Shown here in pieces: positions 1 to 60,301 of a stretch of 64,000 bases of DNA. How positions within the stretch are numbered: the stretch's first letter is position 1; each line of letters begins with the position of its first letter. The notes below the pieces were generated by a model that made no database searches, was not told the DNA's origin, and saw only the letters and a program-made list of their open reading frames with translations. The stretch spans positions 13,895,653 through 13,959,652 of the forward strand of contig NC_134028.1 of NCBI RefSeq assembly GCF_964204645.1, read 5' to 3'. A program made the position numbers and the translations under genes. Source of the DNA: Tubulanus polymorphus. Taxonomy: Eukaryota; Animalia; Nemertea.

Positions 1-3000
1 TTTCATCAAATATTCTGTTACCTAAAAACTTAGGATATGATTGTAAATGCCTTATCCTTTTGCCATTACTTACTAACTCAATATCATTTCTGTTTCTAAT
101 ATTTTCACCAGTCTTACCATAGAATGCATTGTTCATTAGTTTGAAGAAATCTTTCTCAAAATAAGTTTTAGCTTCAGTTCTCTGTTTGGTGTTAAAATCT
201 ATATATTTTTCTAACCACTTAGATTGACTGAATGAAATATAACTATGTACTTTTTTAGGATCATTCCTTGTTTTTAAATAAAACTTTAACATTCTATAAT
301 GTACTACATAATTATATTTATCTTCTTGAGTTACCATTAACTTTTCTGTATGAATATGATTTTCGGGTTTAATTCTTTTTTGATAATTTGATAATTCTTC
401 ATGAGTTACAGTTTTATGTTCTGGACAGTATGCTAGATTTCTAGATTTAAATTTAATATGTTCAGGATATTCTAAATCTACAACAAAGAAGTAACCAGTA
501 TCTGAATCATCTGCAATATCTAGGATTCTTTTCTTCCAATCAAATTTATCATTATTTTCATGTTGTGAAACTTCAGTTATTTCAAATACTCCATAAGGTT
601 GTGGTTCCATCATTGCCCAACCATACAAATTATTTGTATCTATATATAATAACTTATATCCGGGGTTATCATTTACATTGAAATATCTATCACCTAATAC
701 ACCTGAAACTCCTCCTCTTATAGATTTTTCAAATAATAATAATTGATCTATATTTGTTAACAAATCCATTTTTATATCTGTAAATTTTAATCCACAATCC
801 CATGTTAATCCTGGACTTGAATAACAATGACAAGGATCAATATTAAAATATTTTAGGTTTACATCTCTAAACCTTTCAAATATATCGGTTAATAATAATA
901 CATCTGATTTTAGATATGAATCTACTAATTGCCCATGATTTTCTATTTTGAAATGATTCCAAATATTCAATGTTCTATTATAGACTTCATCTTTAACATA
1001 TTCATTTTTTAATTCATCATAGAATTGTTCTTTCAATAATTCAGTTATGTTTAAATCATCATGATTTTTATAGAAAGAATATGGAATTGCGCCTTTATAT
1101 CTCATTAATTGGAAATCATCATTATTTGGGTAGTGTTGCTTTAATATTTTTAATTCATCATCAACTAATGATTTTGATAAGTTATCTAATGGACTATTTA
1201 AAAATCTATATGATTCTATAAATCTTAGGCAACCAAATTGGAATGATATATAATTCTCAGATGTTCTAGCTAACATTTTAAATTTATAAGTTGGTATTTT
1301 ATCCTTTGATCTATTTGAATTTAATCTTTCTATTTCATTATTAATTTCTTCTATTTTATGACATAACTGTTTGATGAATAAATGTGCATCATATCCTGAT
1401 AGATTATGAAATATAACTGGTACAAAGTTAATTTTCTTAGCTTGTAAGTTACAATTCTCATGTGCAGCACCTCTAAACTTTCCATTCAAATGATCATGGT
1501 CTCTTACTTTTTTATCTTTGAAATTAAATATCTTTTCACAATAATAACATTTATCTGCAAACTCAAATGCTTCTTTATCTTCTTCTGTCATTATAATTTC
1601 TATATTTTTATTTAACTTTTCATTAAATCTTATTTCATATTCAATTAATAAGTCACAAAAATGATTGATAACATTTTCATTTCTATAATGATAATATTCA
1701 CTTTTAATTAGTTCTGGATAATCAGATTTAATATATAATCCAAAAGCAGCAGCTGATTGATGAATCTTTTTAATAGTATTTGTTATTGGTGGTTCTTTTG
1801 AAAAATCAATTTCATTAGAATTTAATTTCTTTCTTTTATAATATATTTCTTTTCTATCTTGATCAGTTAATTCTTTATTTAATGATTCAAAATCTCCATA
1901 TATTACAAATGGAACTTTATTTTTGAAATCATATTTTTTGAATTCTAATATTTTATCCTTTTCATTTGGTAAAACTAATTTACAATAATCATGATTTTCT
2001 CATAATTGTTTACGATTTAAAAATGTACTTTCATTACTGAATGTATGTAAACATTTTCTACAAAGATATATTTTATGGTGATCATTTTCTGATTTAAAGA
2101 ATAATTCGATTTGTTTAATCCACATATAATGATTTTCATAATATAGTATATCTATAACATCATTTGAATCATAATCTTTTGATCGGTATAAAGGTTCTAA
2201 TGTATAAGGCTTTATATTGTTACCTTTTGTATTTGGTAATTTGATTAAATCAAATACATTAATTCTTAAATTATTATATCTTTCTATTTTGGGATATGTT
2301 TAATTCTAACAGGATACTTATCTATCTTATAATTATTTTCAAATTGTTTATAATTTGTTAATCTATAAGTATGTTTATTATAATCTTCAACTGGGTGTAA
2401 GCAACTTATAATTGCCCATAGAAAACATTTATCATCAAAATTTTGTACATTTATTACAGCATTAGTTTTAAATGGTAGTTTAATATAACTCGATGCTTCA
2501 ATATCTGGTTCTTTATAATATGATAAATTATTTTCATCAATTGGTTTTGATTTAGTTAACTTATTATATTTTGTGTTATACACATGTAAAGTCATAAATA
2601 TTATTTCATCAAATATTAAACAAGATCCTTCAAAATATTTCTCTTCTATTTTAGTTTTTACTTCATTATAACATTTATCTAATTTATCATCTATATGTTG
2701 TTTAGATATAATATGTTGTGGATGAGAATTGATATTATATATTGGTTTATCTTTAGATTTTATGAATTCAACTTGAGAAGATATACTAATTTTAGGGTAT
2801 TCAGCATCAGTTATTATTTTTATTATTTCTTTCATATTTTCTAAATGTTTTTTTATTTTCTTCTTATGTTTTTCCTTTATGAAATTTAAACTCGATAGCT
2901 GCTGGACCAATATCACTTTTAAATGCTTCGGTTATCTCTATATCTTTTTTATTATCTAATGAATTAATATAATTTCTTACATCTTCCATGTATGGTCTTT

Positions 3001-3346
3001 TATTGTTTAATTTATTTCTTATTCTTTTAATTGTCTTATGTTTCTTATCATTGTCATTATCAAAATAATCTTTACCTAAAATATCATTATTCATATTTCT
3101 AATATGGCTTTTAGATTTTAAATTTTTATTATAATATCTTTTATCACTGAATGATTGACTACAAGTATCACATTTGTATGTTTCTTTTTCATTCTTTAAT
3201 TCTTCTAATTTAGTTTCTAATATATCATCTTTATATTCTAATTTCAATTTATTCTCTAAATGTGTTTTAGTTTTATTGTGTCTTGATTTTTGGGATTTAT
3301 CTATATTGATATTACATGTTGGACAGTAGTACTTATTTGCTTCCAT
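1..3346 (-). pseudogene. Protein-primed family B DNA polymerase with N-terminal C2H2 zinc fingers and an inserted HNH/endonuclease-VII-like domain; disrupted near 2865 and 2284
   Basis: ORFs 2864-3346 (CPTC..H, CDTC..H) and 2284-2916 (DDKCFLWAI). Manual translation downstream: YGDFES (exonuclease I, ~1890), CYYC..VRDHDHLNGKFRGAAHENCN (~1450-1550), FHNLSGYDAHLF, YIDTNNLYGWAM (~630), EKDFFKLMNNAFYGK (~130). Confidence 0.9.
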
Positions 3347-3593: not shown

Positions 3594-3782
3594 AGTAATA
3601 GGGGTAATGGGCTTTCATGCTAAAGGTTGAAGGGGCGAGTGAGTAAAAAATGAAAGTAACAATAATTTCCATTTGAATTAGGAGTGTGCGCGACTAATTC
3701 AACTGGAAATTATTGTTATTTTCATTTTTTTGCGAGCTCGACCCTTCGACCTTTGGCCTGAAAGCCCATTACCCCTATTACT
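3594..3782. repeat. Terminal fold-back palindrome (189 bp) of Polinton-like copy 1
   Basis: AGTAATAGGGGTAATGGGCTTTCA... pairs with ...TGAAAGCCCATTACCCCTATTACT; loop GAGTGTGCGCGA. Confidence 0.92.
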
Positions 3783-5782: not shown

Positions 5783-6689
5783 AGTAATTGGAAAATCAGG
5801 GTATCATACCAAACGTCGAGAGGTCGGCACATCACTCATCACCACTCGTAATTTTTTCCTTATAAATGGGGGACAGAAAAGCATTCTTAGCAACAATGAA
5901 TAACAGAATAAAACCAGCAAAAAACAATATGAAATGAAAAAGTTAGTCGATGTTACAAACTAAATTGAACATAAATTATTAAAATTAGAAAAGAAAAACA
6001 CTAAATACGGATAAAAAATATCAGCAAATTAAAAAATGAAAATAAGTTTAAAGATTTAGAAAAATTTACCTTTTTTGCATTTTTACTCACTTTTATTATT
6101 GAAAAAAATTAATTATTGTTACTCACACTTTACTCACACATTTGATATCGTAAAATCTAAATTATTTTCAGTCACATTTTACTCGCACTTTAGATATTGA
6201 AAAATCAAAATTATTTTACTTACACTTTACTCACACTTTTAATATTGAAAAATCTAAATCATTTTACTAACTCTTTACTCACACTTTTAATATCGAAAAA
6301 TCTAAACCATTTTACTCACACTTTACTCACGCTTTTCATGTTTCGAATTTTATTATTTTATATTAAAAAGTTTGATCATTTTGGAAAAAAAGCAAAAAAA
6401 TGTGAATTTTTCTAAATCTTTAAACTCATTTTTATTTTTTAATTTGCTGATATTTTTTCTCCGTATTTAGTTTTTATCTTTTCTAATATTAATATGTATG
6501 TTCAATTTCTTTTGTAACATCGACTAACTTTTTTATTTCAAATTGTTTTTTGCTGGTTTTATTCTGTTATTTATTGTTGCTAAGAATGCTTTTCTGTCTC
6601 CCATTTATTAGGAAAAGAAATTACCAGTGGTGATGAGTGATGTCCCGACCTCTCGACCTCTGGTATGAAACCCTGATTTTTCAATTACT
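5783..6689. mobile_element. Non-autonomous Polinton-related mini-element (907 bp, ~290-bp TIRs, 6-bp TSD CTCAGA)
   Basis: Ends AGTAATT...AATTACT. CTCAGA at 5777-5782 and 6690-6695. Empty-site paralogue near 6958-6985. Internal TTACTCACACTTT repeats resemble 3412-3450. Confidence 0.85.
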
Positions 6690-32046: not shown

Positions 32047-32106
32047 TCTGAAAAGATAACAATGAGCCACGTCAATATGGCAAACTTTGGAACAGTCGTC
32101 GTCCTT

Positions 32107-38317: not shown

Positions 38318-38584
38318 TTATTGAAAGATCATGGCATAAAACCTAGAGCTTTCCGCCCATGAGGGGTCTTTGTGCTCTTTTCCCAGCACTTCCGCGGTTT
38401 CTACGAGGCAATTTCGAAGGTGCCTTAACTTTGGCCCATTAGCATTTACAATAAGCTCAAATGTTTCCTCGTCACCGGATGCGTTCGCATCCTGCTCCGC
38501 CCAATAGAGACCGTATAGGCCATCCGTGAATACTTCTAACAGAAAATCATAGGTTTCTTGGGCCTCTATGATCTCTTCATCCAT
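38318..38584 (-). CDS. Small acidic leader ORF (88 aa) between PBS and gag, function unknown
   Basis: ATG-initiated, GC-richer island within an AT-rich leader. Confidence 0.55.
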   Translation of the reverse strand: MDEEIIEAQETYDFLLEVFTDGLYGLYWAEQDANASGDEETFELIVNANGPKLRHLRNCLVETAEVLGKEHKDPSWAESSRFYAMIFQ

Positions 38585-38691
38585 AATTCAGAAATTATAT
38601 ATAATACTATCGTATTAGAAATTCAGAAATTTTTTTGTGTTATTTAAATTGGAATTTAAAGTAGCTAATTTATTATATATTATTCCGGAGT

Positions 38692-38709
38692 TCCCGGGTT
38701 TCGGCACCA
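38692..38709 (-). promoter_or_regulatory. Primer binding site complementary to the tRNA-Phe 3' end
   Basis: TGGTGCCGAAACCCGGGA, 3 nt after the LTR's terminal CA. Confidence 0.9.
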
Positions 38710-38712
38710 ATA

Positions 38713-39795
38713 TGTTCCGCGGTCCCTTTCTCTATTGTCTTTTTCCTCTATTACAAACTCCGGTCCCTGGCGAGAAAGTCGACCACGAACACAGAAACCC
38801 GAAAACCAAGGAATAAAAGGAACTCCGGATTTAAATATGATAATACTCAACTTTAATTCTACAATTTTAACTGAACTATAGTCTCAACAATTTATAAAAT
38901 TCCCTACCTTTTAATTTAGAATTTTGTTACAAATCCCGCACACAAGAAGATGCAATTCAACCGGATAGCCGAAAGTTATCTGTTCTATAGTCTTCTAATG
39001 CTTCCCCTGAAAATGCTTTCCAAAAGAGTCCGCTCTCTCTCGAGGTGCGGCCCCTTTTATACGGCTGCGTCCACACCCAAGAAAAATCCAGAACCCTGCT
39101 TGCGGCCAGCCGTAAAAGGGAACGAGCAACCAACGCAGCACCACGACGCAGAGCTGGGGTCCTGATTCCTAGACCTTTCATTCGCTGCTAACTTTAACCC
39201 GACCCTCGACGTCATGATACCTGCCGGTCTGCTCTCCTTCTCAACCGCACCGAAGAGATTACATATATACTATTTTTCCAACCCTCGAACTCATTTATTT
39301 TAACTTATCCAATGATTACAATTCCCACAATGAATGGTATTTAATTTTGTCTAAATAGTAATATACAATGTAAGCCGAAATATCATCTTTCTTATTTATA
39401 TTCTTTATCATTATTAGTACATTCAAATTTAAACACACAAACTCTTATTAATTAAAATAATAAAACTCTTTAATATTACTTTTTAATATTACTCTTTAAT
39501 ATTACTCCTTATTATCGAATTATCAGACTAAGGGTCAGCGAGTGTTTCATAAGTTGATTTCATAATTGCTCATTTCCACGAATTCTTCTCATGACTACAG
39601 CGCCGTGATTACCTTCAAAGTGATTTAGAATGCTCGTCTGATACAAGTATAAATGTTTCAGACAAACAACCATTAAGGCGGATAATGTATTATCGTACAC
39701 AAGGAACAATGCGTGTGTTCTCCCAGGACCATGCCAAGAAACCTACGTATATTAATCGTTTGATCTTTTTGAAAGTACAATTCAGCTGCGGATCA
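38713..39795 (-). repeat. 5' LTR of the Gypsy element (1083 bp)
   Basis: TGATCC...GGAACA on the minus strand, followed by the PBS; TATA at 39055-39061. Confidence 0.95.
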
Positions 39796-41665
39796 CTATA
39801 CTGTCATCTCCTATTCTAATACTTGATAGCTTGTCTCCCTTACGAAATTTTGACGTAAAATGTATAACCTCTGTCTTACTATCATTAAAAACAAGTCTAT
39901 TGCACTTCAACCATTCCTTTATTTCGTCAACACACTTCTCAACTCTTGATTTAGAAGCTGCACAACTCTTGCAGACGAAATAAATCTGGGTATCATCGGC
40001 ATATAACATTTAGTCGAGTTTATGTTTAATAATAATTTCTTCGATTGGTGCAAGATATAAACTGAAAAGTGTAGGGCCTAGTACACTCCCCTGAGGTACA
40101 CCACACATGAGTTTAACATTTTGAGATGACGATCTGTCAATCACGACACGCTGATACCTATTTTCTAAATATGACCTAAACCATTCTAAAGGAACATCTT
40201 TCACTCCATACCGATTCTGTAATCTATTCAATAGAATACCGTGATCTATGGTGTCAAAAGCCGCAGTTAGATCTAATAAGACGAGCACTACTTCATCGTG
40301 ATTATCAAGAGCTAACAAAATATCATTGTGTACTTTTAAAACTGCCGTTTCGGTGCTATTGAACTTCCTATAGGCAGACTGAAATGTTGAGAAGAGGTTA
40401 TTATCGGATAAATACTGACTCAAATCATTCAATACATGCCGCTCTATAGCTTTACTGATAAAAGGTAGATTAGAGACAGGTCGATAGTTACATAAAACAT
40501 TTGAATTAAGACCTGGCTTTTTCAACATTGGCCTGACTGTTGCTATTTTGAAAGAGTCAGGAACTGTGCCCTCAGTGAGGGACAAGTTAAAAATATCGAC
40601 TAACTTTGGTAAAACTTCAGGTAAACATTGTTTTAGAAAAGTAGTGGGAATCGGATCAATTGAACATGACTTATTGGTCATTGAAGTGATAATGTCGTTG
40701 AGAGACTTTTCAGTAACCGTACTAAAACTATTGAAGGAATGACCAAGATCTATAAAAGGAAAACGAGGGAGTGGTACATCAATAAAAGAATTACATAGTT
40801 TGGCAATTTTCACAACAAAAAAAATCGATTAGCCAGTTCTTTGGGATTGCTGTGCTCTGGCAGCGCGGAAATTACAGACTTCTTATCACTTGTCCATTCA
40901 TCGACAAGGGTGAATAACTTTCTCTGATCGGTACAGTCTGCTATCCAACCGCGATGATAGGATCTTGAGGCTTCTTGCAACAAACTATGGTACTCAATCC
41001 GATTGGCATGATAAATCTGTTTATCGACCTCTAATTTGGATGAGATCCACTTCCGTTCGTGGCTACGTAAAACACGCCTAGCAGCCTGGAGATTGGGTCC
41101 ATACCATGGAGCGCGAGGCTTATCGGTGAAAGTTTTAGTCTTTTCTGGCGCTAGATAGTCCAAAACTGACTTCATCTTAGCATCATAGTCATTCGCCAAA
41201 GAATTAACAGTCCCGGTCTCGGTATTCTCAAAAGATATGTTGCGAACTGTTTCCAGTAACACGTTCTTATCCACCGCTCGGAGGTTCCTGGACACACGTT
41301 CGACCGTCAACGGAAACGGTTTAGATAAAAACGAATTAAATACAATAAGACTATGATCTGACGGCAATGACGTATCAACGATAAAATTTGATACACATTT
41401 ATCGGTTTCACGAGTGATCACTAAGTCTAGGGTGTGGCCCTTCTGATGGGTCGGTCCTTGTAAATGTTGTAAGAACCCAAAACTGCGTAATAGATCAAGA
41501 AACTGTTGGGCATCGCGTCGCACGGTATCGTCAACGTGAAAATTGAAATCACCAACTATTATCAAACAACCTGGCGATATCAAAAAAGTCTCAAGGAACG
41601 TTGAAAATTCAACAAGAAATGTCTTTGTGGTCTGAGCAGGTGGACGATAAACAACTACTAAATTA
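39796..41665 (-). mobile_element. L2/CR1-group LINE, 5'-truncated part (APE C-terminus and RT, frameshifted)
   Basis: VYRPP, GDFN, GHTLDLV, SDH; NYRPVS, AFDTIDH, GVPQGSVLGP, YADD. Confidence 0.93.
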
Positions 41666-45552: not shown

Positions 45553-45882
45553 TCAGTGAGTATTTTATACTATTTGCAGTGTTAATTTAGTAGATTATGG
45601 TGTAATAACATAAGAGAATATTCCGTAGTATAAGAGTATAACATAAATCAGTGAAATAGAGAAGTAATTCCATTAAATTAAGGCGAAATATTATGATGCA
45701 AGATAAAGGTTTATTTTGTATTGCGCAATCTAGAAATAGCTCAGATATTATAAGTTTGTATTATCTGTTTACAGATTTGAATCGTCCAAAATCCGTTGAA
45801 TAAAGAAACATCAATTTGATATCCGGAGTTTGTTATTTGTCGGACGTATTCAAAAGCCACCACTTAAAATCCCATCGAGCCA
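45553..45882 (+). repeat. BEL/Pao 3' LTR (portion shared with the 5' copy)
   Basis: Direct repeat of 25597-25926. Confidence 0.9.
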
Positions 45883-45884: not shown

Positions 45885-47305
45885 CGCGAATCTCAATAGG
45901 GTTTTCTGTGATGTAACAGAAAACCCTAAATATAGCTGCAAGCAGCGATAACGGGTTTCTGCCTTTCTGGATAGAATGTCGTTCAGGGATGCGAGCAAAG
46001 ATTTCACCCGAAATCAGTTCGTTACATTCCGTTTTTCGAAAGAGTGCCACCTAGGGGTCAACTCACAACATGGATATGTTGACCCACATGTGCTACTACG
46101 CGCATGTGCTACTACGCGCAAAGTACTAATGTGCCGGGTTTTGGGGGAAATAACATCGAGAAGAACGTAGCTACGGTGTTTTTACCATTCCCTAGTGACA
46201 GTTTAAGCGCATATTCGGTTATTATTAGTTCCGAAAAAAGTCGACTAAATGAGAAAACCTTATTTGGCCCAAAGCACAAATTTGGCTTATAGGGTAAACT
46301 ATGCAGGCCTTATAGTGTTACTATTAGTTAAGGAGTGACAAGTCAGTCTGACATGTGAAGCGATCAGATGGGGACTACAATTCACATATGAAATTGACGT
46401 CCAATAACCATTATAAAAACATAATCACGAACGGTACCATCACTCCCCATTACTGACTGTCACTGGTCTCTGGCTAGCAATCATTCTTTATCGGTGCAGT
46501 GGGTAGGTATTTTCAACTGACTATGTTCTTCTATGACATTACCATCACCGCTGCGCCACGATGTGATGTACGTGTACAAGGGACCTCCAATTTGTAATGT
46601 ATGTGATGTATAAACTGACTTTAGACCGTTTAATATCGACGATAACAAGGTATCACCGACGCTGACATTTTCTGAGGCTAACTAGTATGACCCGCCTTTT
46701 GGACCGGACCAATTAAATTCAATTAACAAAACGCGTACCGGTACAATAAATAAATAAACCGCTGTTGATTTTTCGAAGTATTGATATCCATGAACAAAAC
46801 TATACTATTATAGAATGTTTAAAAGGAACTGCTTTTAATAACAGTATGAATAAACTTACCTCACAAACAAGGAAGTACATTTTTAACTTGTGAATGGTCG
46901 AACCCCAGTTATTCACACTAACCTGTGATTTGGATATTCTCGGAGCATTCCTTCTTTATTTATTTATGAAAAGACGTCACAAACTTTCAGATTCGCGCCA
47001 GTATGCGCGCCATGATTGATGATTGCTATGTCCACCGGTGTTATATTAAGGTAACTTCACGTAAATAGGAAGCACAGTACATCCATAGAAACTACGCGCA
47101 GAAAGAGACTGTTATATTATTATCAGAGTTTAGCATTTCGTTTCAAAGTTGTTAGTAGTCGAATCTGATAGAAGATGATTTTTATGTGACGAAACTCAGT
47201 AAAAATATGTTAAAATAATAATCAGCAGGAATCAAGCAGCAGAAACCCTAATAAGAAACTCGCGAATCTCAATACGGTTTTCTGTGAAGTAACAGAAAAC
47301 CCTAA
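45885..47305. mobile_element. Helentron/HINE-like non-autonomous segment bounded by duplicated hairpin ends
   Basis: CGCGAATCTCAATA(G/C)GGTTTTCTGTGA(T/A)GTAACAGAAAACCCTAA at 45885 and 47261; AAATATAGCTGCAAGCAGCGAT motif shared with the array. Confidence 0.55.
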
Positions 47306-47374
47306 TTATGTTATCATTTTATAGTGTTAAAATTTTATCTAAATCAAGGAATGATATCAAAATTAGTATATGGA

Positions 47375-47492
47375 AAGAGTCAATAAATCAATCAAATGGT
47401 TGGAAAAATATATCGATTTCAATACAAAACAAAGAACCTATACTAAAACAGATTTCGAAAAAGATTTTTTTCAAATTATTAAAAATGCATTC
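47375..47492 (+). pseudogene. Isolated pPolB fragment from a third Polinton-like copy
   Basis: KWLEKYIDFNTKQRT..KTDFEKDFF..NAF, matching the reverse complement of ~122-230. Confidence 0.8.
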
Positions 47493-47787: not shown

Positions 47788-47860
47788 GGCTTATTTTTTT
47801 TCGCCCCGAAAAAACTGGTGGAAACAATCAACCGACATCTACTTTATTACTGACAATATC

Positions 47861-47966
47861 AGTATTAGGGATAATAGGGGTTCAGGCCAAAGGTCGAAAA
47901 ATAAATTCTCGCACACTCGAATTTATTTTTCGACCTTTGACCTGAACCCCTAGTATCCCTGTTACT
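47861..47966. repeat. Left terminal hairpin (106 bp)
   Basis: AGTATTAGGGATAATAGGGGTTCAGG...TCGCACACTC...CCTGAACCCCTAGTATCCCTGTTACT. Confidence 0.92.
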
Positions 47967-48017
47967 CTCAAAATATTCATATCAAAAATCAATTTTAATA
48001 AAAAATTTGATATTAAA

Positions 48018-50049
48018 ATGGAAGCAAATAAGAAGTACTACTGTCCAACATGTAAAATCAATAAAGATAAATCTCAAAAAGCAAGACATAATAAAACTAA
48101 ATCTCACTTAGAAAATAGATTAAACTTAGAATATAAAGATGATATATTAGAAACTAAATTCGATGAATTAAAGAATGAAAAAGAAATATACAAATGTGAT
48201 ACATGTGATCAATCATTCAGTAACAAAAGATTTCATAAAGAACATTTAAAATCTAAAAGTCATATTAGAAATATTAATAATGATATTTTAGGTGAAGAAT
48301 ATTTTGATAATGATAATGATAATGATAAGAAACAGAAGACAATTAGAAGAATAAAAAATAAAATAAACAATAAAAGGCCATACATGGAAGATGTTAGAAA
48401 TTATATTAATTCATTAGATAATCAAAAAGATATTGAAATAACCGAAGCATTTAAAAGTGATATTGGACCAGCTGCTATCGAGTTTAAATTTTATAAAGGT
48501 AAAACATTAGAAGAAAATTAAAAACATTTAGAAAATAAGAAAAATATTATAAAAATAATTACAGACGTAGAATACCATAAAATTAGCATATCATTTAAAG
48601 TTAAATTTATAAAATCTGAAGATAAACCAATATATAATATAAATTCTCATTCACAACATATTATTTCAAAACAACATATAGATGATAAATTAGATAAATG
48701 TTATAATGAAATAAAAACTAAAATAGAAGAGAAATATTTTGAAGGATCTGGTATAATATTTGATGAAATAATATTTATGACTTTACATATTTATAACACA
48801 AAATATAATAAGTAAACTAAATCAAAACCAATAGATGAAAATAATTTATCATGTTATGAAGATGATAATATAAATGGATCAAGTTATATCAAATTACCAT
48901 TAAAAACTAATGCTGTTATAAATGTACAAATTGAAGATGATTAATGTTTTCTATGGTCAATAATTAGTTGCTTACATCCAGTTGAAGATTATATTCAACA
49001 TATTTATAGATTAACAAATAAGAAACAATTTGAAAATGATTATAAGATGGATAATTATCCAGTTAGAATTAAAGATACACCAAAAATAGAAAGAGATAAT
49101 AATCTAAAGATAAATGTATTCGATTTAATCAAATTACCAAATACAAAAGGCAATAAAATTGAACATTTTACATTAGAGCCTTTGTATTCAAAATATTATG
49201 ATTCAAATGGTGTTATAGATATAGTATAATGTGAAAATCATTATATGTGGATTAAACAAATAGATTTATTTTTTAGAACAGAAAATAATCACAATAAAAT
49301 ATATCTATGTAGAAAATGTATAACTAAATTCAGTAATGAAAGGGCATTATTAAATCATAAGCAATTATGCGATAATCATGATTATTGTAAAATGATTTTA
49401 CCAAATAAAAAGGATAAAATATTAGAATTTAAAAAATATGATTACAAAAATAATCTGTAATGATATGAGAACTTCTATGAAATTTAATAAACCAATTTAT
49501 GTTGGAGCAACAGTTTTAGAAATATTATTATTATTAATGTATCAATTCTATTATAACGTATTAAAACCTCATTTTGGAGAAAAGCATATAGAAATCTTAT
49601 ATTTTGATACTGACAGTTACATATTAAAGATAAAAACTAATAACATAACAGATGATTTAAAAACATTGAAACATCATTTTGATTTCAGTAATTATCCTAA
49701 AGATCATGAATTGTTTAACAATGATAATAAAAAGGTGCCAGGGAAGTTTAAGGACATGAAGAAATGATTGAATTCATAGGTATTAGATCTAAAATGTATT
49801 CACATAAAACTAAAACTCATAAATCAAAGAAATTGAAAGGAATTACCAAAAGTGTAGTCGAAAAAACATTCATTTTAAAGATTACATCAATTGTATATTC
49901 AATGAAAAAGTTAGAAAACATAAGATGAAATGTTTATGATCTCAAGATCACGAGATGTTCATTGAAGAGATAGAGAAGATAAGTTTGAATCCTTTCGATG
50001 ATAAAGGATATATTCTCGATGATTGTATACACACAGTTGTTAATGGTTG
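48018..50049 (+). pseudogene. ZnF-pPolB with a large internal deletion near 49455 and many stops
   Basis: Collinear with copy 1 up to KKYDYKN, then jumps to the C-terminal NKPIYVG..YFDTDS..KKVPGKFKD. Confidence 0.9.
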
Positions 50050-50536
50050 AAATTTAGAAGAAAACTTAAAATTTAAAAGAGAAGAGTCAAAAGAGAATGA
50101 GATTATGAAAAGGATTATTACATGTTAATCGGCTTTAATTCAATTTTAATAAAAATTTGTTATTAAAATGGAGAGAAAACAAGTACACAGTGAGAACAAC
50201 AAATCATTTCTAGATAGAATTAAGATACTACAAATGTAAAATCTGTAGATTATAAATTTAAGAAGTTAAATGAATTAACAATTCATAAGAAATATCTAAT
50301 TACAAATATTGATACAGCTACTAACAAATATGGAGATAGATTAATAATTCACTCAAAATATGAAGGATTAAAAGGAAAAAATATAAATTTAGAACATATT
50401 TACCAGATAGATTTCATAGATTATCTAGTGAAGATTTAGAAGAATTATGTTCTGGCGATTTCTATTTCATATATAAGGGTAAGAATGAAAAAGGGCACCA
50501 TGAAATAGATTTTGAATAAAAAAATATGTAAAATAA

Positions 50537-51300
50537 ATGGTAGAATTAAAAGAATATAGAATATTTGTTGATTCTAGAAAACTGATAAATTCTAAATAAC
50601 ATAATTTACCAGTACAATTAGATAGAGAATTTAAGAATTGCGTAGATTTGAAATTAGTAAATGTAAGTTTATGTAACTCATTTTACGATATATCGGATAA
50701 AACTATTGATCATAGACTGTTTATGATTCATGTTAGAAATATAAATAAATGGTTTCATCTATTTTTAAAACCAGGATTATATAATTTAGAAACATTAGCT
50801 CAAGAAATTAACAGAAGAGCCCGATTAAAACTTAGAAGTGAAGATAAATGTTCAATTAGATTTATAAAAAGTAATAGTTCTGATAAAATTAAAATAAAGT
50901 TAGATGATGAAACCAAACACGCATTTATGGTACACAAACCAATAGCTAAAATGTTAGGAATTAAACCATATACTGTTACAGGAAACTCAGACGGTAATTC
51001 AAATTTAATGCCTTTAACACACTTTTATATCTATTGCAATTTAATTGATCCTACAAAAACTTTCGAAGCAACTAAAGATAAAATTTGTAATTCTAGTATA
51101 TTAAATATTTTACCATAAAAAAATGTTAAACAATTTGGAACGCAAATAAGTTATAATTTAGCTGAATGTGATTTCAAACCTTGTATTCCAAAATTCAATA
51201 ATTTTACATTAGAAATTAGAAATCATAATGGATACTTAATTGATTTTAAAAAATTTTACTGTAATTTATGAATTAGTAATAATAATATGTGGAGAATAAG
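50537..51300 (+). pseudogene. Minor capsid (penton)-like protein
   Basis: PGLYN, FYIYCNLID..SSILNILP, ..FTLEIRNHNGYLIDF pattern typical of Polinton/PLV pentons. Confidence 0.6.
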
Positions 51301-51802
51301 TTTTTAACTATATAAATGAATATAACAGCAGGACCGAGTATATGTTTTGGATTTTATTTTAAACGTGAGAAAGAAATGAAACTTAACATTAATGATGTAA
51401 TAACATATATTAAAAATATTACATTTTTTAATGAAACATTTGATTTTGAAAAAATCTATAAATAAAGAAACTTTTAATGTAGAAAAGATTACTGATTTAA
51501 TTAGAGAGTCTTTAAGATTTTATGAATTAGATGAAGATTATAATATCATAAATGTTGAAATAATCATAAATAAGATAACTAAATATTTATATATAATCGA
51601 GCATTACTATCAGTTGGAACTTTTGGTTATACAATGGTATTAAAAAGTATTTATGATGGGAAGTGTAAATGTTGATAGATTTGATATAAATGACATTTTA
51701 AAATTAACATTAGCAGTTACTTTATCTAATTTAACTATTGATTATTTGGAAAAACAAAAGTATATTCCTCCTATATAAATGCGTAATTTTTTTACTAAAT
51801 AA

Positions 51803-52228
51803 ATGGCTTCTGCAATTATAACTATTATAGGATCGGCAATTGTTAACGCTTTAGCATTTACAGGTGGTGGGTATTTATTTAAGCATGTTGATAAAAATAG
51901 TTCATTAGCAGAAAAAAGAAGACATAACTTAGCATTAGAAAAATATAATAAAGCAGCAGAAGAATATAGAGAAAAAAGACAAAATTATATGGATTACATC
52001 AATAAAGAATTATATATTCAGAAATTTACACATAGAGATTTTCAATCAGTTGATGAAGCTATGACTTTATATTTATAAAATGCAGTAACAAATCGTGAAA
52101 AATCACAATTGTACAAACCTAAATGATCAGATTATTATACCCCAAGTAATGAACAGAAGAAATATGAAATAATTTGGATTTTAGGTGGAACAGTTATTGT
52201 ATTATTTGTTGCTTATAAATTTACTAAT
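51803..52228 (+). pseudogene. Small protein with N-terminal hydrophobic helix, coiled coil and C-terminal TM segment
   Basis: MASAIITIIGSAIVNALAFTGG..EKRRHNLALEKY; downstream EIIWILGGTVIVLFVAYKF. Confidence 0.6.
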
Positions 52229-52715
52229 TAGTAATTTCTTTTCTTAATAAATGGTTGATAAAATTGATAATGTTGATATTATTATTCCTCATGATATAAA
52301 TAAAACTAAATTAAAATTATATTCGGAAAAATAAATATTAGAATTTGAAAATGATTTAAAAATTAAAAAGAAAAAATATTTAAAAAGTATTTATAAAGTA
52401 AAATTATATATTATTTTATTATTAGTAGTTCTGTTACAATTAGTTCTGTAATAACATTTCTAGCATTATTCTCACCATTAACACCTTTATCTATCTCAAT
52501 TGGAGCTTTAGGTTTAAGTTCAAGTGTATTAACCGGGATAGGTTCAAAAATAAATATACAAAGTTATAAAGAAAAAATTAAATCTAATATATAAGAAATT
52601 AATAACCTACAAAATACATTAGATTATATAATAAGTTTAAATGGTAATATAACAGTTGAAGAACAAGATAAATTATTTAAAAAATTAATAAATTAATAAT
52701 TTTTTTATTATATAA

Positions 52716-54023
52716 ATGCTAGATAGTTTTCCAAAAGCTTTTCAATATAATGACTCGATTTAATATAATATTCCTGCAATAGATTTTAATAAAGATATTT
52801 CATATAGAAATGAAGTTTTGAATTCATCATATATTTTAGATATTAATGTTACTGAAACTAATAATTTTAATGCAAAGTTGGAAAATATATTCAATATTTA
52901 CGTAATTAATTTTAAAAATTTAAATGAGGCAAAACAATGATTATTAAAATCTAATATGAAGTATTGACAGAACCAATTTAATTTTGCAGTTTATTGTGCA
53001 ACAAGAGCGTGTGGTATAAGTTGGAATGATCATTTAAATAAACCAAGTTTACCATTAAAATTACATTTTTTAGATGTCATACATATTTTCAAATAAAATT
53101 AATATTAAATGAATTAGAGTGCCCTTTACCAGGTTAAAAATATTTTAATGAACTAAACGATAATATTAATTTTCTCAAAGTTTTATAAAATATGTAATGA
53201 ATTTAATCTTAATTCAAATAATGATTTTAGAGCAATAATTGGTACAATGGGTGGATTAGGAATATTATATACTAAAGCGTTTGGAAAAATAATGACAAAT
53301 ACAGACAGGAGAACACTAAATTGGAAAGAATTACCAAAATATCATAATAATATACAACAAAATAATAATGGATGGATTAATTTCATTTTAGAAAATAGTG
53401 AAGGATTTACTAAAGCTGGGATACAGAGAATAAATAAATCTATTAGAACTTATTTGATATGTATTCTAGGTGCACAAATTGAAAAAAGATCCACAATAGT
53501 TGGAAATGATAACACTTCATTTGACGCGCAGAAACAATTTAAAGTTTTATTTGAAGATTCAATTCATAATGATAAAAATAGATCGATTCCAGAAAACATT
53601 GTAAGATATCAAAATTAGTTAGATAAATCTCATGTAAGATTAAATTATTGTATAGGTTCTAATCTATTTATTATTTCAAATGATTTAGTATTAAAGATGG
53701 GAAATATAAGTGGTTATAATAATTTAATTAAGACTGCAACAATAAATAATTCATTTGGATTAAATGACATAAATAAAAAGATTATTACTGCTCCAAAACT
53801 AATGAAAGGTGAAAAAATTAAAAAACATATTCAATCAACAGAATATTAGATGGATAATGATTCTAACATAAAAGATTACAATACATCAGAAAATATTGAA
53901 ACTGATAATATTCAGCATGAAATAATTAAAAGTAATAATGATAATAAATCACATGAAAATACTAAATTAGCAATAACTTGTATAGGAATTGTAATTGGAG
54001 GGATATTATATTTTAAATTTTAA
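52716..54023 (+). pseudogene. Uncharacterised Polinton-associated protein with C-terminal TM anchor
   Basis: GFTKAGIQRINKSIRTY..FDAQKQF segment; ends HENTKLAITCIGIVIGGILYFKF. Confidence 0.6.
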
Positions 54024-54659
54024 TTTTTTATTATATAAATGGAAGAAGATATTCCAATGGATACTTTTGGTGACGCCCCTGGTATAAGTGATGAACCACA
54101 ACCTGATTTTAATGAAACTAATATTGATAATGATGATGGATCAGCATATAATACTAATTACTAACTACTAGGTGAGGATGATTCTAGTGGGCCTATATTA
54201 TATGATTATGATGAATTTAAAGATGATACTGAAACAAGTGAAAAACTAATAGATTATTTAAGAACCCACGATGAGATAATAATTAAAACTAGACCAGAAA
54301 GAAAAGATTCAATTAATAGATTAGAAAGAACAGAACACTCTGAATTGAAAAAGAATTATTATACATAAAACATAGTGTAACAAATACAGGCCTATTGAAG
54401 AATTATTACCAAAACATGTAACAGATAACATTGAACCAGAAGATATTTCAGAACAAATTAGAAAAGATGACATACATTTCATGAATAATTTTGAATTTAA
54501 AAATGATTCATTGTATTAAAATGTTGAATTAAATAACAAAACTGTATCAATTCAATTATCTGAAATGGGACAAGAAGATCTGTACCATCCAAGAATTCTT
54601 TTTTCTTGGCAAGAATCTTGGTTTCTTACTCGTACGTCTCGTACATAGATATATAAATA

Positions 54660-55451
54660 GTTATTTTATAAATTTATATTCATAAGGAAATTGTAGTCTC
54701 AGTAATAATTCTGAACCTTTATTACTTTTTAATTTATTCATATATTCATCATGTAATTCAGTAGGTATAATTTTATTTTCTTCCAATGATTGTTGCATAG
54801 ATTTCCTATCTTTATTGTAGAATAAAACTAGAAATCTAATGTTTTCTCTAAAATCTTTAACAATTCAATTATATTTTTGATTTAAAACCCAAGTTGTTAT
54901 CCCAAAATGTCTCCCAGAGAAAGCTAGATAACATAACACAACTCTAACTTTTGAATCATGGAAATTTGCACAATCATCTACATTGAATAATGTATTTGAT
55001 CCTTTATAGATACCATGCGCTATTTTTATACAATTATCTAAATCCTAATAGTCATCTTCAGGAATAAGACTTATTCCTGAAGATGACTATTAGGATATAG
55101 TCGAAACGTTGAAATAAACTACTATCTCGAAGTTTCATTTTCGGACTTTTTATTATCATTGTGGGATTCTCTCCTCATCGCGTCAACACGGATATAGTGT
55201 TCTACCAATCGTAATTATCTAAATTTTGTTTTACTGTTTTAGGATCTAATATAATAAACTTTTTTATCTTAACTATATCCCTATTATATGTTTTATTCAT
55301 TTCATAAGTAGGACAGAATAATATTATATTATCAAAATGATTTTTATAAAATAGTTTCTAACAAATCTAATATGAAATGCGTTTTACCATAATTTGTTAC
55401 CCCAGTAACTAACATATTATGCGGTTCAAATATAAATAAATCTTTATTCAT
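54660..55451 (-). pseudogene. A32/FtsK-like packaging ATPase, interrupted by a Penelope fragment
   Basis: Walker A LVTGVTNYGKT, ILFCPT, Walker B LFNVDDC, SGRH..TWVLNQ. Confidence 0.85.
55044..55212 (+). mobile_element. Penelope-like terminal fragment with a hammerhead core and a 5' inversion; ~12-bp TSD AATTATCTAAAT
   Basis: CTGAAGA-TGACTAT..ATAGTC-GAAAC at 55077-55107; palindrome 55042-55096; duplication at 55032-55043 and 55213-55224. Confidence 0.75.
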
Positions 55452-56505
55452 TGATTCTTTTACTTTTACTAGATAAAATCCATTCATTAAATTTAACATC
55501 ATACCCTTTATATTTCACCAAAGAATACTTTTTTCCTTTAAGAGTTTTTGTTTTCAATACTTTTTCTACTTGTATTCTATTTCATCTGGATTTGGTACAA
55601 GTGATAATTCTTGTTCATAGAAATAACCTAATATTTCTCCATCGTTTAAATCTTCTTATTTATAAACAAAAGGTTTAGTTAATATTATCTTTTTAATTTT
55701 GAATATTTCTTCTGTAAAATTTGGAGTATAACCTTTATAAAATGTTTTTCGATATTTAGATATTCTAACATGTTGCCCTATTTTAAATTTAGGTTCACCA
55801 AAACATGTGTAACAAACGCTCCATATAAATTATTCCAAACTATTTCTGAATTATCTTCTTTTCTAGCTTGTATAGGTTTCAAACCAATACTTGAATGTTT
55901 AGAATTATAATAACCTTTCACTAAATCATCTAATACATCGATATATTTATATGTTTCATTGGCAGTTAAATATTTCCACTTTCTAGTTTTCAATGTTTTA
56001 TTAAATCTTTCTATGATAGATGCTTTTTTTATCTGAATGCGTTGAAAAATACTCTACATCGTTATCAGATAATAATTTTTTAAAATTCATCAAATTGTAT
56101 CTTACCTGGAATAGCTTCTTTTAATATATTTATAAAAGCATTTGTTACTTCTATACCAGTTTTATTTTTGATTGGAATTGACCATGCGTATCTACTGAAT
56201 ATATCTATAACATTCAATATCCAGAAATATCCTTTGTTGTATTCTTCTAAGTTCTTCATGTCTATTAAATCTCCTTGCCATTGTTGATCAACATATGAAA
56301 CCGTAACTTTTCTTGTTAAATAATTTTTATCCATTTTCTTATGGATTTGATATGTTGGTTGATTTTGTAACCATAATCTTAGTTCACTATATTTTACATT
56401 TTCTTTATCAAATTTCATTTCATCCCATAATTCTGAAACACTAGAATATGATACTTCAATCTCTGGGTTATAATATAAATCTCTTAGATATTGTTCTTTT
56501 TTCAT
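55448..56505 (-). pseudogene. Retroviral-type (rve) integrase with C-terminal chromodomain
   Basis: WQGDLIDM, VIDIFSRYAW, ASIIERFNKTLK, FKIGQHVRI..KGYTPNF, EKVLK..LVKYKGY..EWI. Confidence 0.9.
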
Positions 56506-56511
56506 CTTATT

Positions 56512-56856
56512 TTAATCCATCAATAATAATCTTGGTTTATTTACAATGATTTTATCATTTGATTTATTTTCTGGTATAATAGGTTTATCATCAAAATAAT
56601 TATTATTAGATTTGAATCTAGATTTATATATTACACCAGAGAATATAATTACTGTGATAAACCCAAATGCTATATATAAGTAATTATTTCTTCCACTATT
56701 AAAAAGAATTAGATTTGAATTAATATCAGGTGATTCATTTATATCAGTGAATGTCTTTTTCTTAGCTCTTTTTAACTCTGAAGATCTTTTACCTAATTCC
56801 CTTGCCCATTTAATTTGTTTCTCAGATCTAGGCTTCTTCTTAATACCATCACTCAT
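56512..56856 (-). CDS. Uncharacterised basic protein with one TM segment (114 aa)
   Basis: Intact ORF in very AT-rich DNA; TAAATG start. Confidence 0.6.
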   Translation of the reverse strand: MSDGIKKKPRSEKQIKWARELGKRSSELKRAKKKTFTDINESPDINSNLILFNSGRNNYLYIAFGFITVIIFSGVIYKSRFKSNNNYFDDKPIIPENKSNDKIIVNKPRLLLMD

Positions 56857-56861
56857 TTATT

Positions 56862-57452
56862 TTAGTTAATTTTTGTTCTGATTCGTTTTCTGTTTCGCCG
56901 TGTGGGTGTCACACCATCTGTTTCGTTCTTACCTGATTTATATTCTTTAGGTTTGATATTCGAAAATGTTATGACACCAGTAGAGATTAATGTCATAACC
57001 GATCCTAATTGGAATGAAGCATATCCAACCCATTTTTGTAATTCAGTCATAACTAAGTAGTCATTTTTTAATTCAATATATAATTTATTTTCATCATTAA
57101 TTGACATTAACCGGTTACATAATTTTGAATAACATTTGACAATACCATCAGAAATATAATCATTTATTCTAGCTAATCTTGACTCTTCATTAATCTTAAG
57201 ATATTTTATTACTTTTTCTTTGTTCATATTATCTAATTTTTGAAAAGTTATAATTTTAGTTAGAAATTCTTTACACTTTCCGCTAGCAATTAGTAACTCA
57301 AGATGATGCTTACAGTATAAATAGCATTCGTAATCAATATTATTATCAACTTGAGCACAATCAATAAAAACTGTATCATTATTGCCAGTAATGCCCAAAT
57401 CCTCAATTGTCTTTTCAATATCAATACTATTCTTATTCAATTTCTTTGACAT
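56862..57452 (-). CDS. Uncharacterised Polinton-associated protein (196 aa)
   Basis: Intact ORF; TAAATG start. Confidence 0.65.
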   Translation of the reverse strand: MSKKLNKNSIDIEKTIEDLGITGNNDTVFIDCAQVDNNIDYECYLYCKHHLELLIASGKCKEFLTKIITFQKLDNMNKEKVIKYLKINEESRLARINDYISDGIVKCYSKLCNRLMSINDENKLYIELKNDYLVMTELQKWVGYASFQLGSVMTLISTGVITFSNIKPKEYKSGKNETDGVTPTRRNRKRIRTKIN

Positions 57453-57719
57453 TTATATTAGAGAAAAAAAAACAAAAAAAATATTATACTTATTCTTCAA
57501 ATGATACTAGTAACTCTTTAGTTAATACTAGCTTAGTTAAGTTAAAGAATTCTAGTATTAACTAGATTTGAATAGCTACGTGAAGATAAAGAATTTCTAT
57601 TCGAATATATTCAAAATATAAAGTATTCTCTTTTGAAAAGAAATATTAGATTTTGAAAAATATCTAATATCTAGTTGAAGTTATGTAATTTTTAATATAT
57701 TTTTATTTAAATTAGGATT

Positions 57720-58435
57720 TAATACCTCACTAATTTTGTCTATCTATGCGGAGCAATTAAATCGTCCAAATAAGTCATTTCGGATTCTCGGTATTGAATC
57801 ATATTCCATAATTGTATAAATCTTTTAGCTTTAATTATTTGATTATTATATAATTCATTATAAATTTTATCATGTTTAATTCTATTTTCTGTTTTCGATA
57901 AAGAATAATATTCTTCCAATTACATATTGTTTTTATTTCAGATTCATCTTCTATTGATGATAATGGGATAACATGATCTAACTCCCAATATTCTCCATGA
58001 TTCTCAAAGTTCATGTTATTATCGAACTGATATTCTATCCATGCTTTAAAGAATTCTATAGAACACCCTAAATAACCAATTGATCTATCAGATTTTATAA
58101 AATTTTTGGAAAACCCTGTTCAAACTAATTCTGTTAGTATGCTTTAATTTGAATAATGGATCTGAATTATATTTTACTTTTTGGTAATTATTGATATGTT
58201 CACGGTTATCTTTTATCCAATCTCTCATGTATTCTGGGTTATTTTCTCGATATTGTGCATTATTTTGTTTCCAACATGTTTTACAAATATTTCGTAAATC
58301 ATCTTTTTAAAACTTTTGTTTACAATATTCTGAAGATTGTTAATTTAATTCACACTTAGAACATATCTTATGATAAATATTTATAACACCAGCGTTATTT
58401 GTAATATTAATAATTTGTGGCTGTTTACTTTCCAT
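57720..58435 (-). pseudogene. HNH-type endonuclease of the kind common in large DNA viruses
   Basis: Manual translation: ICSKC.., YLGCSIEFFKAWIEYQFDNNMNFENHGEYWELDHVIP..CNWKN. Confidence 0.7.
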
Positions 58436-59707
58436 TTACAATATATGAATTTTTTTTATTTTATTTGAAATATATTTGATAATTTCCGTCTGTTCGTCTT
58501 CGACTTACGTCATCCTTTTTCATTCCTCGCTACTTTTGATAAGTCATTTCGGATCCTTGATATCAAAATCATACCAGTTGCAATATCCAAGGCGGGCCTA
58601 AATGACCGCTTTTGCTCAGTAGGCGCCAATCATAATTATATATTTATTCTGTAAAATTGAAACGACCGAACATAGAACATTCACACGTATGTGCACTGAT
58701 CAAAACCAGTCCTAAATGGCCCCTTTTGATCAGTGCGCGTGCGCCAATCAAAATTATATATTTATTCTGCAAATTGAAACAACCGAACATAGAACATTCA
58801 CCAAACAGATTTACACAATACATATACAAGTATGTTCGGTCGTTTCATCCAATGCATCATTTTATTTCTATATATAAAATTGATAATTACGAACATTTTT
58901 TCATTTTCCGGTTTATATTTAACTACATCAACAAATGTCAAACTTAATAATTGGAATTTTTGGAGTAGTCTAAATGTTTCTGAAATTCTTATATAGTTTC
59001 TTCGTCGATCTTTTGTGTTTCTTGTGCTTCTACACCCATTTCTATTGGTTCGACTTTCAGTGCTGTTGATTCCTCAGAAAGACTATCTTGAGTTGATCTA
59101 TCGCTTCTTGATGCGTATGACGTTTTATTAATCTAAAAGATATCGGCGGTAACTCTAGCTATCTAAAAGATATACTAAATATAAACATATTTAAAGGTTT
59201 CATATTTAGTAGCCTCAATAACAACAAAAGTACTTACATTTAACTCGCGAACTGTTATATCCGAAATGGGATAGATATTATAACTGTATATGTATGTCTG
59301 TTTGAGGGAGCGGTCTCTGGTTCAGTGTTAATACGTCATGTGAATGTACTAGCGCACACGAAACTTTCAGTTATTAAATTAACAAGCACCATCTGTCACC
59401 GTTTGCAGTAAACGATCGTTAATAATTCCGCGCGTAAGTAGGCAACAGGTGTTTTTGCAGTTTTACAGTGTTGTATGATATAATGTTAGATATCAACTGG
59501 TAGTATGAATATGGCTCAATCCTTATCTCACTACTTTGTCTATCTAAATGTGTTCTAGTTTTATTGTGTCTTGGTTTTTGAGATTTATCTATATTCATTT
59601 TACATGTCGGACAGTAGTACTTCTTATCTGCTTCCATTTTAATATTAAATTTTTTATTAAAATTGATTTTAGAAGTTATTCATATTCATATATATGAATA
59701 TTTTAAG

Positions 59708-59829
59708 AGTAATAGGGATAATAGGGGTTCAGGTCAAAGGTAGAAAGGTCGAAAAATAAATTCGAATGTGCGAGAATTTATTTTTCGACCTTTCGACCTT
59801 TGGCCTGAACCCCTATTATCCCTATTACT
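59708..59829. repeat. Right terminal hairpin (122 bp)
   Basis: AGTAATAGGGATAATAGGGGTTCAGG...GAATGTGCGA...CCTGAACCCCTATTATCCCTATTACT. Confidence 0.93.
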
Positions 59830-60301
59830 AATATCAATTAGCATCCCATAAACATTCAATACAAATATCTAAAATGACAATACAATATAGTGTGTTCATT
59901 ACATACACTTATACAGATATTTCATCACAAGAAGCAAAGAAAATACAATAGATTATTTAACATCGGAAAATTGACGTATTCAGTAGATTACAATAGTTTA
60001 CAAAATATTTATTCAAGTCCAGACATTTGATCATAGTATCCTGCAACTAAATGCAACTAATGTCCGACACAGTCCTTTCAAATGCAAACAAACACGTCCA
60101 ACAAAACGAATGTTCCGCCACATCCAGCGACCAAATACATGACGAATATAGATTACCAGCGACAAGTTCATAAACACCACACAGCGAAAAATAAACGACG
60201 AATAGAACACCATATAAAACAGCGACATTACAAATACGCGATATAACCGCACTCGACAAATATATCCCGGAACAGTGTAGAGATTTCGACAGCAATCCTT
60301 A

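Follow-up and report, generated by a model that had tools for sequence, protein, structure and literature searches.

We analyzed a window of 64,000 nucleotides from the nemertean Tubulanus polymorphus (NCBI RefSeq assembly GCF_964204645.1, contig NC_134028.1, positions 13,895,653 to 13,959,652 of the forward strand), and all positions below are counted from its first base. A 12-kb Polinton-like element lies at 47861-59829, whose borders are terminal inverted repeats (TIRs) plus a 6-bp target-site duplication (TSD), a combination that is a feature of Polintons/Mavericks. Each of its ends is a long fold-back palindrome that directly adjoins the TSD. A second element, which we called copy 1, has one end, also palindromic, inside the window and the other beyond the window edge, and a gene-less fold-back of 907 bp is present in the same window (Table 1). 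An earlier note on this DNA had reported the palindromes and had suggested that the family self-primes or resolves its ends through hairpins, a hybrid replication mode. Our data indicate that a role of the palindromes at the genome ends is likely, and models of the family's polymerase suggest that protein priming has been kept.

Table 1. Features of the element at 47861-59829, of copy 1, and of the 907-bp fold-back in the window.
Feature	Positions	Strand	Match or basis
Left TSD, AATATC	47855..47860		sequence
Right TSD, AATATC	59830..59835		sequence
Left terminal palindrome, 106 bp, one 8-bp repeat unit per arm	47861..47966		
Right terminal palindrome, 122 bp, two 8-bp repeat units per arm	59708..59829		
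Left TIR, comprising the palindrome, a promoter-like AT tract, and the first 32 pPolB codons	47861..48112		
Right TIR	59543..59829		
pPolB N-terminal part: zinc fingers, predicted terminal-protein domain, vOTU domain; four in-frame stops	48018..49457	+	
pPolB C-terminal remnant, frameshifted	49468..50125	+	
Small conserved gene, broken; a copy of the AT-rich repeat of start sites lies before it	50170..50520	+	
Possible minor capsid gene, broken	50558..51256	+	23% to an L034 ORF, weak DUF5901
Conserved Polinton accessory gene, broken (presumably PW-like)	51803..52222	+	ORFs of relatives
Conserved Polinton accessory gene, broken (presumably PZ/gasdermin-like)	52722..53813	+	ORFs of relatives
A32-type packaging ATPase, broken	54676..55424	-	36-43% to an L081 ORF (Pox_A32 E 5.5e-13)
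Retroviral-type integrase with chromodomain, broken	55468..56505	-	
Two genes, function unassigned, common to relative L030	56512..57452	-	
HNH-like gene, broken	57803..58417	-	
Copy 1 terminal palindrome, 189 bp, different stem, related loop, orientation as in the element	3594..3782		
Copy 1 pPolB, frameshifted near its start, runs off the window	2..3346	-	
Endonuclease_7 domain (PF02945) inside copy 1 pPolB	1442..1588	-	24.2 bits, cut-off 23.6
Gene-less 907-bp fold-back, two outer-type tips, own 6-bp TSD CTCAGA	5783..6689		

The three palindromes and, for the element, their position beside the TSD at both ends were confirmed, with z of -15 to -20 against shuffles. The left palindrome has 48-bp arms and a 10-nt loop (-42.3 kcal/mol, z -14.9), the right one 56-bp arms and a loop as at the left end (-58.9 kcal/mol, z -18.7), and that of copy 1 folds with -76.4 kcal/mol (z -19.5); for each, 0 of 200 shuffles folded as well as the real sequence. 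Polinton end motifs are (AGT)2 or (AG)3, and the tip, AGTAAT, is one base off the motif of PMC8097293 (here and below, statements on cited papers refer to the parts of them that were available). The earlier note had this end motif occurring twice per terminus, which is correct in that a copy lies at either edge of each palindrome, but both copies at the left end carry one change (AGTATT, AGTAAC). A degenerate tip pattern matched eight times in the window, compared with 0.43 expected; six matches lie in the three palindromes and two at 5783/6689, and the scan found no solo copy of the 106-189-bp hairpins in the window. When the TIRs, of 252 bp (left) and 287 bp (right), are aligned, 235 of 252 bases agree, and the gaps measure 8, 8, and 19 bases. 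The two 8-base gaps represent one tandem-repeat unit that is absent from each arm of the left hairpin. Because the left and right ends differ by this unit in both arms at once, each end appears to track itself and not the far end.

The element is a decayed, internally deleted Polinton and a dead copy. This is because there are four stops in the first 480 pPolB codons and because residues 482-1142 of P0002, an open relative, which comprise the exonuclease, EndoVII, and most polymerase motifs, are unmatched before the C-terminal remnant. (The loci of relatives are metagenome contigs found through pPolB, of which the best 80 of 449 were kept.) As a defective copy it belongs to the Polintons/Mavericks, based on a pPolB with terminal-protein (TP) and vOTU domains, an RVE integrase, the ATPase, and TIRs with a TSD. 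The integrase gave an rve match with E 1.6e-4 on one piece, below the cut-off, and matched at 76-84% an open reading frame (ORF) of relative L030 that passes the cut-off. In relatives, the small conserved gene is located upstream of pPolB and encodes 121-128 aa. Using 642 ORFs from related loci as queries, including capsids of the double jelly-roll (DJR) type, we found no match to a DJR major capsid protein within the element, which is accordingly not classed as a complete polintovirus or adintovirus. An adenain-type protease was not detected in the element with queries that were distant, nor by eye among the listed ORFs of L081. An HUH Rep/NS1 endonuclease had no Pfam match in ORFs or six frames, where decay lowers sensitivity, and no RuvC-type resolvase was found in the element. 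The element is AT-rich (~20-29% GC vs 34-44% in its surroundings), and its Bel-Pao and Gypsy neighbors, like its animal-linked relatives, point to an animal host. In contigs of one sequencing run (X1), the summed contig depth was 4,470-178,740 inside the element and 79-174 in the flanks; such depth, which is no copy number, suggests a large family.

Additional variations were noted in the genes and their order. An AT-rich repeat ending in AAATG is common to the start sites of several genes (47986-48032 and 50137-50183 in the window; L029, L030, and L032); it presumably resembles poxvirus late promoters and is possibly a point of shuffling. Among close relatives the small gene lies before or after pPolB, and the integrase block may be inverted. 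A near-perfect 63-bp hairpin (55038-55100), at which a clear TSD was not seen, interrupts the ATPase gene, and an isolated 190-bp piece of a further pPolB copy lies just outside the element (47303-47491).

Comparison of the two arms of each palindrome revealed changes that are matched between them. When the outer 28 pairs were compared across four ends, 92% of the cells paired and 12 of the 28 pairs had changed on both sides, which exceeds 500 of 500 shuffles and all slid controls. The arms differ from each other in 3/78 columns for bases 1-26, 14/58 for bases 27-44, and 15/105 further in; the contrast between the first two zones (Fisher 5e-4) is post hoc and drawn from three subfamilies. On the outer arms, bases 27-44 form a motif (CCAAAGGTCGAAAGGTCG at the right end) that is the best-kept part between subfamilies (78-94% alike), whereas the same zone on the inner arms is 45-72% alike; bases 7-26 are 48-80% alike with their pairing retained. 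The CC that opens the motif was observed in 7/7 outer tips and 0/5 inner arms, and the outer-type motif in 4/4 outer arms of complete palindromes and, again, 0/5 inner arms. The inner motif has been degraded by differing changes in four subfamilies, with the bases on either side remaining paired. From these alignments the inner arm looks to be complementary but motif-dead, and the polarity of the ends looks fixed. The inward orientation of the loop is identical at 3/3 window ends, and flip-flop isomers were not seen in this small sample (3/3 loops and 4/4 complete palindromes of one polarity). At other sites, the run X1 contigs contain ends with one repeat unit (record 1) and with two (record 2), in one contig each, and other stems that surround the same loop core. 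The hairpins are family-level and probably functional, and since they also have a polarity and are maintained through changes that match between the arms, a role at genome ends is likely.

Whether the pPolB N-terminus holds a terminal-protein domain was a question raised by the earlier note, and modeling predicts both this domain and a vOTU domain, each with its key residues. The polymerase belongs to the TP-vOTU-Exo(EndoVII)-Pol type. We modeled the window's own N-terminus, with X at the four stops and an alignment of n=114 (mean predicted local distance difference test, pLDDT, 79.8); a single-sequence fold of the TP region, with a pLDDT of 34, was unusable. The modeled TP domain (residues ~150-263, with the serine of EGSG kept) resembles the little finger of Y-family polymerases (Z 7.2-8.4 over six rows; best Z 8.4, root-mean-square deviation (rmsd) 2.8, 104 aligned), and the modeled vOTU domain (residues ~295-416, Cys and His kept) resembles viral OTU proteases (Z 6.3, rmsd 3.5, 97 aligned), Z values that are middling by the structure-search tool's own note. 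Viral structure matches of the N-terminus were to adintovirus, MELD, and bidnavirus-like polymerases, and a Foldseek search of the model against the PDB gave nothing at E <= 0.001. Krupovic et al. report the same little-finger and OTU matches for the TP and vOTU domains and put the linking residue in the loop that connects helix 2 to strand 4 (bioRxiv 10.1101/2024.03.18.585575). The predicted priming serine in this loop is present in 80/80 aligned relatives, the vOTU Cys and His in 79/80 each, and the EndoVII motif columns in 78-80/80 (80 of the 120 listed matches were aligned, selected by full coverage and high rank in the list). As the predicted TP serine is invariant and the TP and vOTU folds are present in the model, the family polymerase is predicted not to have lost protein priming. 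This pPolB is related to the PolB of a Corynactis coral adintovirus (34%). Copy 1 retains a 666-aa open stretch with DNA_pol_B_2 and Endonuclease_7, and P0007, a protein of a relative, has intein and LAGLIDADG Pfam marks inside pPolB.

These data bear on the hybrid mode suggested by the earlier note. In such a mode, the folded 3' end would prime synthesis, the EndoVII in pPolB would resolve hairpin-closed monomers and palindromic dimers, and TP would act only at open ends. A base-paired 3' end does form by geometry, and such a model has been proposed for virophages as well as Polinton-like viruses (PLVs) (bioRxiv 10.64898/2026.07.28.741278). The EndoVII domain has a His-Me finger motif and a zinc knuckle (PF02945 above cut-off), its motif residues are kept in nearly all aligned relatives, and T4 EndoVII is a Holliday-junction resolvase; however, the same Pfam family includes a restriction enzyme (PMC5714182), and Krupovic et al. 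interpret such inserts as homing endonucleases (bioRxiv 10.1101/2024.03.18.585575). EndoVII is not specific to hairpin ends, being present also in the hairpin-less relatives L033 and L036. The domain had no PDB sequence match to T4 EndoVII, and our literature search turned up no paper tying the EndoVII insert to end processing. The lack of flip-flop and the restriction of the outer-type motif to outer arms also speak against self-priming, as does, weakly, the lack of a strand-switch joint at the left hairpin in the run X1 contigs, which being contigs only are not evidence of absence. We consider replication by this route unlikely. What stands of the earlier proposal is a likely role at the ends; its self-priming part is opposed by the retained TP and vOTU, the absence of flip-flop, the lack of a hairpin in a relative (L033) whose pPolB is open and whose tip is the same, and the 907-bp fold-back with its own TSD.

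The distribution of the hairpin was followed across relatives, among which the open P0001-P0003 are at 76-80%. L032 has a 257-bp palindrome with tips as in the window element and a different stem. The L029 contig starts inside its own hairpin, the inner arm of which is visible; short-read assemblies break at such ends, and hairpin termini may therefore be under-counted. A tip test covered 14 ends, of which five fold back (the three window ends, L032, and the 907-bp element); nine ends of seven loci (L033, L036, L101, L096, L006, L019, and L005) do not, the ends of the last three being contig starts taken as ends. Further screens of 130 loci and, anchored on the tip, of 135 loci (partly redundant, and most loci stop short of an end) added L132, a distant relative (35%) with a canonical AGTAGT tip and a 129-bp AGTAGT...ACTACT palindrome (5614-5742), 150 bp upstream of an open 1248-aa pPolB. 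The L132 branch is nearer to the hairpin-less L036, L096, and L101 in a FastTree phylogeny (56 rows, midpoint root, partly fragments). Overall, the trait is patchy on this tree, which suggests two or more gains, or else losses. Every element found here with a hairpin has a pPolB; they were sampled through pPolB, hence this is no frequency measure.

Several other observations were made in these screens. The L132 contig is filed under an archaeal metagenome-assembled genome (MAG), and several prokaryotic MAGs contain such Polinton contigs; the L132 contig is probably a eukaryotic contaminant. L136 has a 184-bp palindrome (4657-4840) between divergent gene blocks, just upstream of pPolB and with AGTAGT motifs facing outward into the genes, which is possibly a circle junction or an internal origin, and it also has an apparent protease-integrase fusion ORF (2740-4248). 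Fold-backs were set aside in L061, where the fold-back lies at the contig start, inside the pPolB gene, and is probably an assembly or amplification chimera, and in L079, L089, and L090, where there is no definable end and host repeats are the probable source. A TIR was looked for in the whole record G001 and none was found, and the G003 contigs stop short of an end. In viral contigs, the outer-motif pattern matched eight GC-rich loci with no fold-backs and was taken as chance, and a single-protein scan found no relative.

Patchy presence is what might be expected if the palindromes were a by-product, whereby occasional fold-back template switches duplicate the tip, the duplicate is tolerated and spreads with the TIR, and complementarity reflects recent re-copying. 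Stems and lengths also vary freely (106, 122, 189, and 257 bp), and this alternative was named in the preprint on Halocafeteria discussed below (bioRxiv 10.64898/2026.07.28.741278). Fresh copying, however, predicts that inner and outer arms are equal throughout, yet the inner motif is damaged while its neighbors stay paired, and we regard a by-product as improbable.

The 907-bp fold-back has arms of ~300 bp (276/301 matched). Its tips are nearest to those of the hairpin-less L033 (85% over 47 nt), and its spacer contains five repeats of 48 bp that resemble the inner TIR of copy 1 (87% over 53 nt). Because of these two matches, the best interpretation is that it derives from a sister subfamily by internal deletion, and two outer tips would then be enough for insertion with a 6-bp TSD. 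As a related fold-back with its own TSD, it is also what could favor the hairpins being an independent miniature inverted-repeat transposable element (MITE) that landed at the ends, an objection anticipated by the earlier note. That objection is largely refuted: the hairpin is at both ends and inside the TIR, a single TSD lies outside, and there is no further (third) tip or TSD at the inner edge. Moreover, the hairpin is at the same place in three relatives, and in run X1 the depth of the loop core (53,000-74,000), itself no copy number, is not above that of the inner TIR (up to 174,000). A MITE origin is thus extremely unlikely.

A different use of the palindromes would be excision. The palindrome would extrude as a cruciform at the host-element junction, where a cut by EndoVII or a host resolvase would free the element and leave a solo palindrome between TSDs. 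The palindrome does begin exactly at the TSD, the palindromes make both TIRs direct repeats such that a pop-out is possible, and the route would preserve polarity. The window also contains a gene-less fold-back that has two outer tips and is flanked by a 6-bp TSD, and the L136 palindrome lies between gene blocks just upstream of pPolB. However, the 907-bp element fits an ordinary internally deleted derivative, with its copy 1 inner-TIR repeats and L033-like tips, no solo 106-189-bp hairpin was found in the window, and the presence of EndoVII does not follow the hairpins. Excision in this manner seems to us quite unlikely. It is distinctly improbable that several lineages independently made cruciform-forming ends that are cut at the host junction by the EndoVII inside their own pPolB, freeing a provirus with correct polarity and leaving a solo palindrome scar. 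If true, this would be the missing excision step of Polintons, with hairpin resolution and protein priming in one enzyme. To our knowledge, neither the exit of a Polinton from the chromosome nor the regeneration of free ends for protein priming has ever been shown. A circle with one palindrome resolved by a cruciform cut predicts opposite loop orientations; both ends have the same one, and it was dropped as a routine route. The self-priming, excision, and by-product readings are not mutually exclusive.

Other repeats were also observed in the window. A retroelement at 27937-39798 has gag, protease, reverse transcriptase, RNase H, a chromodomain integrase, and an 879-aa ORF of unassigned function; it is bounded by 1092-bp inverted repeats (99.8%) and nested in a Bel-Pao element with long terminal repeats (LTRs) at 25597-25926 and 45553-45882 (98%). 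Either its Gypsy enzymes are combined with ends laid out in a DIRS-like manner, or an LTR is inverted. A 68-bp palindrome (28994-29061) lies at the inner edge of one 1092-bp repeat and is partly copied at the other; with the three terminal palindromes and the hairpin at 55038-55100, it makes up the five near-perfect palindromes of the window (TA runs aside). The regions 15004-15960 and 17400-25300 hold a long array of GAT/GAC-type triplets and a block in which dispersed repeats are nested.

The reading that we favor, tentatively, is that the end palindromes act as a local panhandle and a template for tip repair alongside the predicted protein priming; the hairpins would then not take the place of protein priming but likely protect the ends and restore them. 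We infer this mechanism from what was directly observed, namely palindromes at the TSD, matched changes, polarity, and an intact-looking TP and vOTU. On a displaced strand, or a single-stranded excised one, each end would fold on itself to give a duplex tip without the far genome end. The TP-polymerase (or integrase) would read the outer-arm motif of bases 27-44 and start at the true tip. If the 3' tip were nibbled back, the inner arm would serve as template for its restoration, and bases 1-26 of both arms would thereby be kept in step. The inner motif may be left to decay, or be selected dead so as not to serve as a false end. Fold-back template switching by a strand-displacing polymerase is the probable origin of the structure, more than once. 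In Streptomyces, a fold-back palindrome templates the repair of truncated TP-capped telomeres (PMC5449611).

Several points weigh against this reading. L033, on a sister branch (support 0.99-1.0), has an open 1336-aa pPolB and the outer tip, and its inner arm is absent, albeit in one short-read contig where collapse or deletion could account for the absence; because six more loci are also without the hairpin, the structure is dispensable elsewhere. The arm statistics derive from three to four subfamilies with zones picked after inspection, the left and right ends are not independent, and, as the tool itself warns, related sequences can beat shuffles. One would expect a processive pPolB to extend a paired 3' end, which would amount to self-priming, and no stop signal is known. 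In addition, AGTAAT departs from a perfect (AGT)2 repeat, and jump-back priming of the classical kind may be weakened by this. A hairpin end is a short, defined DNA substrate with which TP charging, self-priming, and EndoVII cutting could be separated.

Terminal palindromes of this kind have a precedent in protists. The earlier note had asked whether such ends were already standard in described Polintons; this was not so in the available parts of the Polinton papers cited here, but they were published in July 2026 for protist virophages and PLVs. In Halocafeteria seosinensis, palindromes lie within TIRs beside TSDs in endogenous virophage subtypes 1, 2, 5, and 6 and PLV subtype 4, preferentially with non-pPolB replicases, and hairpin priming was proposed by analogy to parvo- and poxviruses (bioRxiv 10.64898/2026.07.28.741278). 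Those elements are similar to ours in having a palindrome inside each TIR, next to the TSD, of an RVE-integrase element, and differ in that theirs are protist elements, mostly non-pPolB, with palindromes of 52 nt in subtype 5, compared with 106-257 bp in a pPolB Polinton here. The retained TP and vOTU, the matched arm changes, and the outer/inner polarity go beyond that description as available to us. It was the sole direct precedent found in our literature search, the coverage of which excluded the founding Polinton papers and Repbase. In the parts available, neither hairpins nor palindromes are mentioned in PMC8097293, PMC11131425, PMC12721341, or bioRxiv 10.1101/2023.08.22.554363, the word "palindrome" does not occur in PMC8502044, and "hairpin" does not occur in bioRxiv 10.1101/2024.03.18.585575 or PMC4405056. 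In the available part of bioRxiv 10.1101/2023.10.16.562556, hairpins are named only for poxviruses, and a palindromic repeat is marked in a figure legend of bioRxiv 10.64898/2026.10.13.758929.

In other respects the element is comparable to described Polintons, Mavericks, and adintoviruses, with which it shares the 6-bp TSD, TIRs, an AGT-type tip, TP-vOTU-Exo-Pol, an RVE integrase, and an A32 ATPase (PMC8097293, PMC8502044, PMC11131425, bioRxiv 10.1101/2023.08.22.554363, bioRxiv 10.1101/2024.03.18.585575). It differs from these, as far as the available text describes them, in its AGTAAT tip and in that the major capsid and protease were not detected in this copy. The telomeres of Streptomyces are also similar, in that terminal palindromes lie on a protein-primed linear end and fold-back restores a truncated tip, but they consist of several short palindromes on a 3' overhang and involve a dedicated Tap primase, an internal origin, and no integration (PMC5449611).

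In contrast to parvo- and poxviruses, the element has retained a TP and generates a TSD when it integrates, and neither an HUH Rep nor a RuvC-type resolvase was found in it, nor flip-flop at its ends. The termini of those viruses are long imperfect hairpins with retained mismatches, as here. Ends of one orientation also occur in parvoviruses, the left end of minute virus of mice (MVM) being comparable. Polar, co-varying palindromes alongside a retained TP contradict the simple pairing of palindromes with non-pPolB replicases suggested for protist virophages. Judged from the sequences compared here, and relative to the published descriptions as available, terminal palindromes would thus extend to pPolB Polintons that keep their terminal protein, with what appears to be the first evidence of matched change and polarity in such ends.

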